From assembly GCF_058153355.1 (NCBI RefSeq), contig NZ_CM177019.1: a stretch of 64,000 nt of DNA; one strand, given 5' to 3'. The translations under genes were made by a program, and so were the position numbers. Positions within the stretch are counted from its first letter, which is position 1. Every line of letters begins with the position of its first letter. The notes below the pieces were generated by a model that saw only the letters and a program-made list of their open reading frames with translations, was not told where the DNA came from and ran no database searches. This document shows positions 11,027 through 40,190 of this stretch, piece after piece.

Positions 11027-11060
<34 letters not shown>

Positions 11061-11153
11061 ATCCTGCAATATATTGAATTTAAAGGCTTTTGTAGGTCTG
11101 GTAAGGCGTTAAAGCCGCATCCAGTATGACAAATCGCACATTGCTATCTGTCT

Positions 11154-32090: not shown

Positions 32091-32208
32091 CAGCTTTATT
32101 CCTCTTCTGCGGAAGAGGATCAGGGTGAGGAACATTTACGCCTCACCCTCACTCTCTTCGCAAGGAGAGAGGTTCACAATTCACTGCACGTTTCAGGAAC
32201 CATCGCTC

Positions 32209-35082
32209 ATGACACAGACGTTAAGCCAGCTTGAAAACAGCGGCGCTTTTATTGAACGCCATATCGGACCGGACGCCGCGCAACAGCAAGAAATGCTGAA
32301 TGCCGTTGGCGCACAATCGTTAAACGCGCTGACCGGCCAGATTGTGCCGAAAGATATTCAGCTTGCGACCCCGCCGCAGGTTGGCGCACCGGCGACCGAA
32401 TACGCCGCGCTGGCGGAGCTCAAGGCTATTGCCAGTCGCAATAAACGCTTCACGTCTTACATCGGCATGGGTTACACCGCCGTGCAGCTACCGCCGGTTA
32501 TTCTGCGTAACATGCTGGAAAATCCGGGCTGGTATACCGCGTATACTCCGTATCAACCTGAAGTCTCCCAGGGCCGCCTTGAAGCACTGCTCAACTTCCA
32601 GCAGGTAACGCTGGATTTGACCGGGCTGGATATGGCTTCGGCTTCTCTTCTTGACGAAGCCACTGCTGCTGCCGAAGCAATGGCGATGGCAAAACGCGTC
32701 AGTAAACTGAAAAATGCCAACCGCTTCTTCGTTGCTTCTGACGTGCATCCGCAAACCTTAGATGTAGTACGTACACGCGCAGAAACCTTTGGTTTTGAAG
32801 TGATTGTCGACGATGCGCAAAAAGTTCTCGATCACCAGGACGTCTTCGGCGTGCTGTTACAGCAGGTTGGCACTACCGGTGAAATTCACGACTACACTGC
32901 GCTTATCAGCGAACTGAAATCACGCAAAATTGTGGTCAGCGTCGCCGCCGATATTATGGCGCTGGTGCTGTTAACCGCGCCGGGTAAACAGGGCGCGGAT
33001 ATTGTCTTTGGTTCGGCGCAACGCTTCGGCGTGCCGATGGGCTACGGTGGCCCACATGCGGCATTCTTTGCGGCGAAAGATGAATACAAACGCTCAATGC
33101 CGGGCCGTATTATTGGTGTATCGAAAGATGCTGCGGGCAATACCGCGCTGCGCATGGCGATGCAGACTCGCGAGCAACATATTCGCCGTGAGAAAGCGAA
33201 CTCCAACATTTGTACTTCCCAGGTACTGCTGGCAAACATCGCCAGCCTGTATGCCGTTTATCACGGCCCGGTTGGCCTGAAACGTATCGCTAATCGCATC
33301 CACCGTCTGACCGATATCCTGGCAGCGGGCCTGCAACAAAAAGGTCTGAAGCTGCGCCATGCGCACTATTTCGATACTTTGTGTGTGGAAGTGGCCGACA
33401 AAGCGGGCGTGCTGGCGCGTGCCGAAGCGGCTGAAATCAACCTGCGTAGCGATATTCTGAATGCGGTTGGGATCACCCTTGATGAAACCACCACGCGCGA
33501 AAACGTGATGCAGCTTTTCAGCGTACTGCTGGGCGATAATCACGGACTGGACATCGACACGCTGGACAAAGACGTGGCTCACGACAGCCGTTCTATTCAG
33601 CCTGCAATGCTGCGCGATGACGAAATTCTCACCCATCCGGTGTTTAATCGCTACCACAGCGAAACCGAAATGATGCGCTATATGCACTCGCTGGAGCGTA
33701 AAGATCTGGCGCTGAATCAGGCGATGATCCCGCTGGGTTCCTGCACCATGAAACTGAACGCCGCCGCCGAGATGATCCCAATCACCTGGCCGGAATTTGC
33801 CGAACTGCACCCGTTCTGCCCGCCGGAACAGGCCGAAGGTTATCAGCAGATGATCGCGCAACTGGCTGACTGGCTGGTGAAACTGACCGGTTACGACGCC
33901 GTCTGTATGCAGCCGAACTCTGGCGCTCAGGGCGAATACGCGGGGCTGCTGGCGATTCGTCATTATCATGAAAGCCGCAACGAAGGGCATCGCGATATCT
34001 GCCTGATCCCGGCTTCTGCGCATGGCACTAACCCGGCTTCCGCGCATATGGCAGGAATGCAGGTGGTGGTTGTGGCGTGTGATAAAAACGGCAACATCGA
34101 TCTGACTGACCTGCGCGCGAAAGCGGAGCAGGCGGGCGATAATCTCTCCTGCATTATGGTGACCTATCCTTCCACCCACGGCGTGTACGAAGAAACGATC
34201 CGTGAAGTGTGTGAAATCGTGCATCAGTTCGGCGGTCAGGTTTACCTTGATGGCGCGAACATGAACGCTCAGGTTGGCATCACTTCGCCGGGCTTTATTG
34301 GCGCGGACGTTTCGCACCTTAACCTGCATAAAACTTTCTGCATTCCGCACGGCGGTGGTGGTCCGGGTATGGGACCGATCGGTGTGAAAGCGCATTTGGC
34401 ACCGTTTGTTCCGGGTCATAGTGTGGTGCAAATCGAAGGCATGTTAACCCGTCAGGGCGCGGTTTCTGCGGCACCGTTCGGTAGCGCTTCTATTCTGCCA
34501 ATTAGCTGGATGTACATCCGCATGATGGGCGCAGAAGGGCTGAAAAAAGCAAGCCAGGTGGCAATTCTTAACGCCAACTATATTGCCAGCCGCCTGCAGG
34601 ATGCCTTCCCGGTGCTGTATACCGGTCGCGACGGTCGCGTGGCGCACGAATGTATTCTCGATATTCGCCCGCTGAAAGAAGAAACCGGCATCAGCGAGCT
34701 GGATATTGCCAAGCGCCTGATCGACTACGGTTTTCACGCGCCGACTATGTCGTTCCCGGTGGCGGGGACGCTGATGGTAGAACCGACTGAATCTGAAAGC
34801 AAAGTGGAACTGGATCGCTTTATCGATGCGATGCTGTCTATCCGCGCAGAAATCGACCAGGTGAAAGCCGGTGTTTGGCCGCTGGAAGATAACCCGCTAG
34901 TGAACGCGCCGCACATTCAGAGCGAACTGGTCGCCGAGTGGGCGCATCCGTACAGCCGTGAAGTTGCAGTATTCCCGGCAGGCGTGGCAGACAAATACTG
35001 GCCGACAGTGAAACGTCTGGATGATGTTTATGGCGACCGTAACCTGTTCTGCTCCTGCGTACCGATTAGCGAATACCAGTAA
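32209..35082 (+). CDS. gcvP: glycine dehydrogenase (decarboxylating), P protein
   Basis: Start at 32209 ([18 protein letters not shown]); 957 aa. Confidence 0.95.
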
Positions 35083-35104
35083 TTTACTGATCCGACTATC
35101 TTCT

Positions 35105-35307
35105 AAAGGCGCTTCGGCGCCTTTGACACTGATGTCAAACTCAACATTGCCTGATACACCTCGTTTATCAGGCCTACATAGTCTGTGCAATGTATTGAAT
35201 TTGCACGATTTTGTAGGCTGGATAAGGCGTTCACGCCGCATCCGGCATAATAAAAGCACTTTGTCATCAATAATTTGAAAGGCGCTTCGGCGCCTTTATT
35301 TTTTTAG
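35105..35307. repeat. BIME/REP cluster flanked by two copies of a terminator hairpin
   Basis: AAAGGCGCTTCGGCGCCTTT at 35105-35124 and again at 35277-35296, the second followed by a T-run; REP-like palindromes between them. Confidence 0.7.
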
Positions 35308-35315
35308 GAAAACAA

Positions 35316-36059
35316 ATGACTATAGCACTTGTGACCGGTGGCAGTCGCGGCATCGGGCGGGCAACTGCATTACTGTTGGCGCAAGAAGGATATACGGTGG
35401 CGGTTAATTATCAGCAAAACCGCCACGCAGCGCAGGAAGTTGTGAACTTAATAACTGAAGCAGGTGGCAAAGCGTTTGCGCTCCAGGCGGATATCAGTGA
35501 CGAAAATCAGGTCATCGCAATGTTTACAGCAATCGATCAGCACGATGAACCGCTAGCCGCGCTGGTCAATAACGCCGGGATCTTGTTTACCCAGTGCACC
35601 GTAGAAAACCTTACCGCAGAGCGAATCAACCGGGTACTTTCCACCAATGTGACGGGATATTTTCTCTGTTGCCGCGAGGCGGTAAAACGCATGGCGCTTA
35701 AAAATGGCGGTAATGGCGGTGCTATCGTCAATGTCTCTTCAGTGGCCTCACGGCTGGGATCTCCGGGGGAATACGTTGATTATGCGGCCTCGAAAGGGGC
35801 GATTGATACGTTAACCACCGGACTATCGCTGGAAGTCGCCGCGCAGGGGATCCGCGTTAACGGCGTGCGGCCAGGGTTTATTTATACCGAAATGCACGCC
35901 AGCGGTGGCGAGCCTGGACGCGTTGATCGCGTTAAGTCGAATATCCCCATGCAGCGTGGCGGACAGGCGGAAGAGGTCGCGCAGGCCATCGTCTGGCTGT
36001 TAAGTGATAAAGCCTCTTATGTCACGGGAAGTTTTATCGATTTGGCGGGTGGAAAATAA
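35316..36059 (+). CDS. ygfF: short-chain dehydrogenase/reductase
   Basis: 247-aa ORF with TGGSRGIG cofactor motif. Confidence 0.88.
   Translation: MTIALVTGGSRGIGRATALLLAQEGYTVAVNYQQNRHAAQEVVNLITEAGGKAFALQADISDENQVIAMFTAIDQHDEPLAALVNNAGILFTQCTVENLTAERINRVLSTNVTGYFLCCREAVKRMALKNGGNGGAIVNVSSVASRLGSPGEYVDYAASKGAIDTLTTGLSLEVAAQGIRVNGVRPGFIYTEMHASGGEPGRVDRVKSNIPMQRGGQAEEVAQAIVWLLSDKASYVTGSFIDLAGGK

Positions 36060-38806: not shown

Positions 38807-40190
<1,384 letters not shown>

Follow-up and report, generated by a model that had tools for sequence, protein, structure and literature searches.

Our analysis of the interval between gcvP and ygfF, within a 64-kb stretch of E. coli DNA (64,000 nucleotides, referred to here as the window), suggests that a non-autonomous element, 153 bp in length, long ago inserted into the intrinsic terminator of gcvP, divided it and left it in duplicate, and we consider this the probable origin of the interval. 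The insert lies exactly between the terminator stem and its T-run, and the whole 20-bp hairpin is duplicated at its flanks.

The two genes, whose names follow the RefSeq annotation of near-identical E. coli genomes, are co-oriented; gcvP ends at position 35082 and ygfF starts at 35316 (Table 1). The 20-nt sequence AAAGGCGCTTCGGCGCCTTT occurs at exactly two sites in the window, as direct repeats 173 nt apart, and two matches were found in none of 100 shuffles, with three mismatches tolerated. Each copy forms an 8-bp stem with five G-C pairs and a UUCG loop (dG -12.2 kcal/mol). A sequence-only reading of this DNA had described the same terminator hairpin twice around a REP cluster after gcvP, and this is what we find: two identical 20-nt copies with a REP pair between them. 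It had also assigned the T-run to the second copy only, and here too we agree: ATTTTTTT adjoins copy 2, and copy 1 is followed by GACACTGA. Copy 2 combines a GC-rich stem and short loop with a T-run within 0–2 nt, and it alone was called in a terminator scan; copy 1 lacks the T-run. The distance of 9 nt to ygfF given in that reading is right when counted from 35307, where it ended the interval, but the distance to the ATG is 18 nt from the end of the copy 2 stem and 10 nt from the end of the T-run, with an AGGA resembling a Shine-Dalgarno (SD) sequence in between. When the RNA of the whole spacer is folded, an alternative structure pairs hairpin 1 with hairpin 2 around the BIME that contains the REPs (MFE -85.5 kcal/mol). 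The behaviour of the spacer RNA in the cell may be more complex on account of this predicted pairing, but co-transcriptional folding should favour the local hairpins. An inverted duplication of the terminator and its flank was considered and rejected: both loops read TTCG, as in a direct repeat, and the flanking sequences are terminal inverted repeats.

Table 1. Features of the gcvP–ygfF interval, with positions numbered from the first letter of the window.
Feature	Position	Strand	Description
gcvP CDS	32209..35082	+	Start placed according to the RefSeq gene of 2874 nt; the mechanically called ORF begins at 32125
Hairpin copy 1 (left target-site duplication)	35105..35124	+	Ancestral gcvP terminator stem-loop without the T-run, followed by GACACTGA
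Insert left arm GACACTGATGTCAAAC	35125..35147	+	Resembles the YPAL/RU-2 terminal inverted repeat AGACTGCTGACAAAC at 12/15 positions
Insert core, RU-3-type BIME	35148..35249	-	Z2-like REP, linker and inverted Y-type REP; nhmmer, Rfam
Insert right arm GCACTTTGTCATCAATAA	35250..35277	+	Matches the Y. pestis RU-2 right end GCACTTTGTCAATAA except for a 3-nt insertion
Hairpin copy 2 (right target-site duplication)	35278..35297	+	With the T-run, the only complete intrinsic-terminator-like site in the interval
T-run ATTTTTTT of the ancestral terminator	35298..35305	+	Directly 3' of hairpin copy 2
Shine-Dalgarno-like AGGA of ygfF	35306..35309	+	6 nt upstream of the ATG; same placement in 45 species
ygfF, SDR-family oxidoreductase	35316..36059	+	RefSeq annotation of near-identical genomes

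Comparison with other Enterobacterales indicates what the interval looked like before the insertion. A scan of species-representative genomes for YgfF yielded 80 loci, roughly 50 of which have gcvP directly upstream; there was no match in E. albertii, E. fergusonii, Salmonella or Citrobacter, and the comparison leaves these out. In 45 species or alleles from the Enterobacteriaceae and Erwiniaceae, the gcvP–ygfF spacer is 56–97 bp long, mostly 56–75 bp, and consists of a single hairpin rich in G and C (median dG -14.6), a tail rich in T (median of 6 T in 8 nt) and an SD sequence, the last lying between the end of the stem and the start codon, a median distance of 18 nt. These spacers contain 36 distinct hairpin sequences, among them the compensatory series GGCGC/GCGCC, GGCGC/GTGCC and GGCAC/GTGCC as well as wholly different stems; hence, it is the structure of the hairpin and not its sequence that is conserved. 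Furthermore, the spacers of Kluyvera, Raoultella and one Enterobacter are almost identical to the single-hairpin allele of E. coli. Together, the single-hairpin spacers and their near-identical counterparts in the outgroups indicate that the ancestral layout is one hairpin immediately upstream of ygfF, and that the window carries an insertion.

Some of these spacers have features of their own. In Kluyvera georgiana and Atlantibacter (L018, L026, L027), a pyrimidine stretch immediately 5' of the hairpin (TCTTCT or TCCTGT) can pair with the ygfF SD sequence GGGAGA in the MFE fold, which lengthens the predicted terminator stem and would mask the SD sequence in read-through transcripts. The corresponding pyrimidine stretch in the window (35096–35104) was pushed 173 nt away from the SD sequence by the insertion. 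The 97-bp spacer of Erwinia aphidicola (L052 2401–2500) has two similar hairpins, GGGCAGGCAATCCTGCCC and GGGGCAGCCAATGGTTGCCC, with a T-run after the second only; the pair may go back to an ancient duplication of the hairpin from which everything between the copies has since been lost.

The interval exists in several forms within Escherichia. The window form was found in 8 of 5426 complete E. coli genomes. In at least three E. coli genomes, a stretch of exactly 173 bp is missing, and one hairpin with its T-run lies directly upstream of ygfF (sequence L005). The K-12 form, with a 266-bp spacer, one intact hairpin and a BoxC pair, is present in 3009 of the 5426 genomes, and ygfF is missing from 2350 of them, including O157:H7 EDL933 and LR-28. 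Where ygfF is missing, the convergent gene bglA follows gcvP at a distance of 165 bp and has a 3' end unlike that of ygfF-bearing strains. This form retains the hairpin, followed by TAGATTGTTAATAAAGT, the end motif that forms the left arm of the element; hence, the deletion that removed ygfF began inside the element. In Escherichia sp. E1V33 (L009 1674–2081), the 173-bp unit of hairpin plus 153-bp insert occurs in tandem, giving three hairpins and two BIMEs. The outer hairpins of this allele are mutated, the first by a 1-nt deletion and the third in its loop (TTTG) and stem (GCGTC). The unit is therefore present in 0, 1 or 2 copies across Escherichia, and we infer that the 20-bp direct repeats render it recombinationally unstable. 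We initially took the empty E. coli allele to be simply ancestral and have modified that reading, since it shares its ygfF haplotype with a unit-bearing strain (100% identity in the 5' region of ygfF). Furthermore, unit-bearing alleles form the deeper branches of the Escherichia tree, a small tree that recombination could distort. The empty allele is more likely to reflect a recent, precise loss through the 20-bp repeats, which would have restored the ancestral sequence.

Two further observations concern these alleles. In one genome, that of E. coli 2017-02-2CC, IS621 (IS110 family) lies inside the first, Z2-type REP of the unit (L006 1–700), beside CTACATAGTCTG; this agrees with the known targeting of REPs by IS621. 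In addition, the first 430 nt of ygfF are 89–96% identical among E. coli strains (the window set against L001 and L004–L009), as compared with 94–98.5% for the last 400 nt of gcvP, and the greater divergence of ygfF may reflect relaxed constraint or recombination.

What kind of element is the insert? Its core is a full-length match to the 103-nt RU-3 of Delihas (nhmmer E=5.6e-17), in which a Z2-like REP (35149–35173) and a Y-type REP (35217–35246) stand in inverted orientation on either side of a linker typical of the BIME family. Rfam recognised only REP-derived families in the interval, namely ES036, which scored 43 bits (gathering score 37.6), and naRNA4, as a partial match. The ES036 (CssrF sRNA) match, at 35170–35212 on the minus strand, covers the linker of the RU-3 BIME and the tails of its REPs, and this "sRNA" family may, at least partly, be a model of a dispersed BIME linker. 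Elsewhere in the window, a second REP cluster consists of two 41-nt direct copies (40023–40063 and 40142–40182), 93% identical and 119 nt apart.

Outside the core, both ends of the insert are of the YPAL sequence type. The score of the right arm against the published RU-2 end was reached by none of 2000 shuffles, and that of the left arm, ACTGATGTCAAAC, by 33 of 2000; the same 11–12-mer is found at the right-arm junction in sequence L034 and in K-12. The likeness to YPAL, and to the 140-bp family described below, is confined to about 15–20 nt at each end, and nhmmer searches with RU-2 and with the 140-bp family profile, including single-sequence searches, gave no match at 35125–35277. Membership therefore rests on the ends and on the target duplication, which at 20 bp falls within the 3–26 bp range of YPAL duplications at or adjoining dyad symmetries, and corresponds exactly to the terminator hairpin. 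At 153 bp, the insert is also of the size of the small elements of this kind (about 130–170 bp) and, like them, is non-coding and intergenic, with empty and filled alleles. Its arms were found at this locus only among the 5426 E. coli genomes, at the sensitivity used; the insert thus has no dispersed copies there and gives no sign of recent mobility. On these sequence characters, we file the insert as a variant of the YPAL kind and not as a regular member: its arms and target behaviour are YPAL-like, and its core is an RU-3 BIME. The BIME is cargo or a secondary occupant, not the agent of insertion.

The same signature is found in a second, dispersed family. In Enterobacter sp. Ag1, the gcvP hairpin of that species, AAGGGCACTTCGGTGCCCT, is duplicated around a different insert of 141 bp. 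Over its full length, this insert belongs to a dispersed 140-bp family (nhmmer E=1.9e-30), and its homologues lie in unrelated intergenic regions of Klebsiella and Providencia (L090–L093) and of Proteus. In K. pneumoniae and K. aerogenes, each family copy lies between two copies of the local hairpin, of which only the second has a T-run. When metagenomes were scanned with the core of the family, 88 usable copies in 62 contexts were obtained (L094–L186). Among these are 32 distinct elements of 139–156 bp that lie between perfect direct repeats of 18–27 nt (median 22), and every one of these repeats makes up an entire GC-rich hairpin (median dG -15.5); the majority of the remaining copies have the same hairpins with a mismatch. 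Of the 8 nt after copy 2, at least five are T in 17 of the 32 elements; after copy 1 this holds for none, and an A-rich stretch precedes copy 1 in 18. An A-rich stretch 5' of copy 1 together with a T-rich stretch 3' of copy 2 suggests that the targets are typically bidirectional terminators.

The inverted ends of the 140-bp family are about 16 nt long (SAGRYYGNTGACAAAS), and its core has two internal hairpins around AATCAATTTATTGATTTTCGGCTGATAA. The ends of the family, of Y. pestis RU-2 and of the window insert can all be aligned, and between the family and RU-2 the alignment covers the ends only. At least three sub-families can be told apart by arm and core sequence (CAGGCCGTTGAC, GAGATTCATGAC and CAGACTGCTGAC). 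Some contigs of one metagenome sample carry many copies, and two copies have an internal 15–16-nt duplication of TTTCGGCTGATAACAC. A search of E. coli for this Klebsiella-type element gave no match. We found no published name for the family in a literature search and no model of it in Rfam, and an Rfam search with the Ag1 insert returned nothing credible.

The most widespread ygfF-bearing form, that of K-12, appears to carry the same kind of element. Its spacer (L001 434–699) comprises the intact hairpin, an end motif (TAGTCAGATGACAAAG), the BoxC pair and the other end motif (GTTTGTTAGCAATCTC), whose score of 13.5 equals the best of 128,000 positions in the window; the position-weight matrix of the ends is partly mis-anchored, and we used it for the K-12 and O157 matches only, checked by eye. 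After GTTTGTTAGCAATCTC come 21 nt, AAAGATACGTCAACGAATTAA (L001 679–699), and then the T-run, SD sequence and ATG. These 21 nt lie exactly where hairpin copy 2 would be expected. They agree with that hairpin at 12 of 21 positions (binomial P about 0.009), and the ability to fold has been lost. The spacer sequence thus indicates that in K-12 the site is likewise occupied by an element of this kind, with copy 1 intact and copy 2 decayed. A comparison of the orientations of the window and K-12 elements gave scores reached by 1 of 2000 and 9 of 2000 shuffles for the two orientations. Decay of copy 2 would uncouple ygfF from the terminator and from gcvTHP. This fits the listing of ygfF in RegulonDB as its own unit in K-12 (as cited in PMC5100583), and the gSELEX data, which show RNA polymerase binding and list a promoter in the K-12 gcvP–ygfF spacer. 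We could not locate the hexamers of the listed promoter in the K-12 spacer, which differs from that of the window.

YPAL-like arms around BoxC, abutting terminator hairpins, occur not only in the gcvP–ygfF spacer but also at fimH-gntP, adk-hemH and yijF-gldA (L198, L191 and L187, respectively). At fimH-gntP the order is AGAGCCTGCCAATGGCAGGCT followed directly by CAGACTGATGACAAAG and then BoxC; at adk-hemH, BoxC is followed by CTTATCAGCAATCTC and, directly after it, AGGCCGGATATTCATTCGGCCT. Arms are present at 4 of about 14 BoxC loci examined, and the remaining loci look truncated. These sequences suggest that, in E. coli, a branch of the YPAL-like family may have BoxC (also called PIT, TMECO and HPGQ) as its core. 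In papers on BoxC, PIT, TMECO and HPGQ (PMC4666352, PMC5100583), BoxC is not presented as belonging to a mobile element, and the arms are not mentioned.

In the ancestral state, a spacer of about 60 bp held a single hairpin, a T-run and an SD sequence between gcvP and the start codon of ygfF. We propose that an element whose inverted ends resembled those of YPAL/RU-2 integrated at the 3' foot of the stem, between the stem and the T-run, and that the integration duplicated the whole 20-bp hairpin as a target-site duplication. The core of this element is now the RU-3 BIME. The length of the duplication tracks that of the hairpin (18–27 nt in the 140-bp family), which suggests that the cuts are made at both feet of an extruded hairpin or cruciform and not at a fixed stagger; this part of the mechanism we infer. 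We know of no transposase partner.

A broader reading, which we offer tentatively and would put at somewhat below an even chance, is that YPAL-type ends define a wider superfamily of enterobacterial miniature elements that integrate at the foot of extruded terminator hairpins, with the hairpin and not an enzyme stagger setting the length of the duplication. BoxC/PIT/TMECO/HPGQ and the BIME-cored copy would be its E. coli members, REP/BIME and BoxC sequences would be cargo that is spread by the arms or swapped between them, and ygfF would have been uncoupled from gcvTHP in K-12 through the decay of copy 2.

Could the interval have arisen in another way? Because the core of the insert is a complete RU-3 BIME, a REP pair (a REPIN or BIME mobilised by a RAYT-type Y1 transposase) might itself have inserted and made the duplication, the YPAL-like arms of the TGACAAAG type being a coincidental flank. 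BIMEs vary between strains and occupy the 3' ends of genes. However, the other REP pairs in the window (40023–40182 and about 11053–11126) have no duplicated hairpin at their flanks, and duplicated hairpins were found at this locus alone in roughly 560 kb scanned. The elements of Enterobacter, Klebsiella and the metagenomes, by contrast, duplicate hairpins and contain no REP at all. The right arm matches the RU-2 end better than any of 2000 shuffles, and we know of no target duplications made by HUH/Y1 transposition. We therefore consider REP-pair insertion very unlikely. It is also conceivable, though unlikely, that no transposable element was involved, and that template switching or illegitimate recombination at the palindrome copied about 150 bp and re-primed on the hairpin. 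Palindromes are hot spots for template switching, the insert is single-copy in E. coli, and the copy number of the unit does shift by recombination. Against this, the 5426 E. coli genomes contain no donor locus, and the same arms recur at the K-12 site, at fimH-gntP, adk-hemH and yijF-gldA, and at dozens of unrelated sites in other genera. Recurrent inverted-repeat arms are what a mobile element with defined ends predicts.

The least probable of the alternatives, in our judgement, is that the two hairpins are a selected tandem terminator or insulator for gcvTHP, with a promoter for ygfF inside the repeat cluster. Both hairpins are intact and identical in several divergent window-type alleles, and a promoter-like match, TTGAAA-16-TATTTT (35275–35302), arises where the right arm meets hairpin 2. 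However, this is the single match in a promoter scan for which 1.5 were expected, and so is not above chance; it overlaps hairpin 2 and would give a leader of about 6 nt with no SD sequence. Nor does the distribution of the two hairpins favour a selected design: the window form is confined to the 8 genomes noted above, hairpin 2 has been lost in most ygfF-bearing strains (the K-12 type), the outgroups have one hairpin, and hairpin 1 lacks a T-run.

What does insertion of a mobile element into the terminator mean for expression of ygfF? Without a T-run, hairpin 1 would not terminate transcription efficiently and would at most pause RNA polymerase. Transcripts of gcvTHP would run through the REP pair and end at hairpin 2, so that their 3' UTR would gain 173 nt rich in stable stem-loops, contributed by the REPs and both hairpins. 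REP stem-loops have been linked to mRNA stability. The structure of YPAL has been linked to mRNA stability as well (PMC2229807). Hairpin 2 keeps its ancestral relation to ygfF, which would be fed by the fraction of read-through, as in other enterobacteria.

The sequence-only reading had proposed that ygfF either needs its own promoter inside the repeat cluster or depends on read-through. The latter is plausible and the most economical route: a canonical-looking terminator does lie just upstream of ygfF, and a hairpin with a T-rich tail is conserved there in 45 species or alleles. The former is unnecessary and would not circumvent hairpin 2, since such a promoter would lie upstream of that hairpin and hence offer no escape from the terminator. 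Comparison of the spacers indicates that the layout predates the repeat cluster, and that a terminator before ygfF is not a product of it. The 45 species or alleles combine conserved co-orientation with a short spacer and leave no room for a promoter downstream of the terminator. With a median of 18 nt from the end of the stem to the start codon, any transcript that reaches ygfF must cross the hairpin. From the arrangement of these sequences, we lean slightly towards ygfF being, most simply, a read-through gene of gcvTHP.

These results turn an odd "double terminator" into a dated evolutionary event with clear states before and after, and explain why the gcvP–ygfF spacer varies from strain to strain. 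They also describe a natural experiment on the 3' end of an operon once a mobile element parts the terminator stem from its T-run. The little-studied YPAL/RU-2 class is extended to Escherichia, Klebsiella and their relatives, and the dozens of clean cases in which the target duplication is a whole terminator hairpin are a strong clue to structure-specific integration. Furthermore, the data suggest an origin for the BoxC repeats of E. coli. For annotation and transcriptomics there is a warning, in that a hairpin seen twice need not represent two terminators, and the conserved layout suggests that in many enterobacteria ygfF is probably transcribed by read-through from gcvTHP.

Several known systems resemble parts of this interval. 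Intra-operon terminators that attenuate transcription are known, for example that between rpsU and dnaG in E. coli; the gcvP–ygfF arrangement likewise has a hairpin and T-run between co-oriented genes with no room for a promoter, so that the downstream gene would depend on partial read-through. The core of the insert is built like RU-3/BIME (PU-BIME of Gilson, Bachellier, Hofnung; RU-3 of Delihas 2007), with a Y-type and a Z2-type REP tail to tail and a typical linker, but ordinary BIMEs have no reported YPAL-like arms or duplicated hairpins at their bounds. BoxC/PIT/TMECO/HPGQ resembles the insert in that the BoxC pair of K-12 sits at the same site between the same kind of arms, and differs in that the window allele has no BoxC. 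The 140-bp family of Klebsiella, Enterobacter sp. Ag1, Providencia, Proteus and gut or environmental metagenomes shares with the insert its terminal inverted repeats, its position at the 3' foot of a terminator stem, the duplication of the whole hairpin and the T-run on copy 2, and one of its copies, in Enterobacter sp. Ag1, lies in the same gcvP terminator; its conserved core, however, is different.

The most informative comparison is with YPAL/RU-2 of Yersinia, a 168-bp element that makes target duplications of 3–26 bp at sites spanning or next to dyad symmetries, and whose transcription is joined to that of the genes upstream (Delihas 2008, PMC2229807, citing De Gregorio 2006). The published Y. 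pestis RU-2 begins with TTCAGACTGCTGACAAAC and ends with GCACTTTGTCAATAACCTCA (PMC2759123). Like YPAL/RU-2, the insert is small and non-coding (153 bp as compared with 167–168 bp), has the same type of ends (AGACTGCTGACAAAC ... GCACTTTGTCAATAA), is flanked by a long target duplication, of the variable kind, at a dyad symmetry, and exists as empty and filled sites; it lies at the 3' end of a gene, with which it would be co-transcribed, judging from its position. Unlike YPAL/RU-2, it has the RU-3 BIME of E. coli as its core, is single-copy in E. coli and has no detectable homology over the whole element. Furthermore, reviews give Yersinia and Erwinia carotovora as hosts of YPAL/RU-2, whereas the host of the window insert is Escherichia. 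Duplication of a whole dyad by YPAL is already published, and the kind of element is itself known. By the literature examined, the BIME-cored copy in Escherichia, the 140-bp relatives with clean duplications of whole hairpins, and the arms around BoxC appear to be new.
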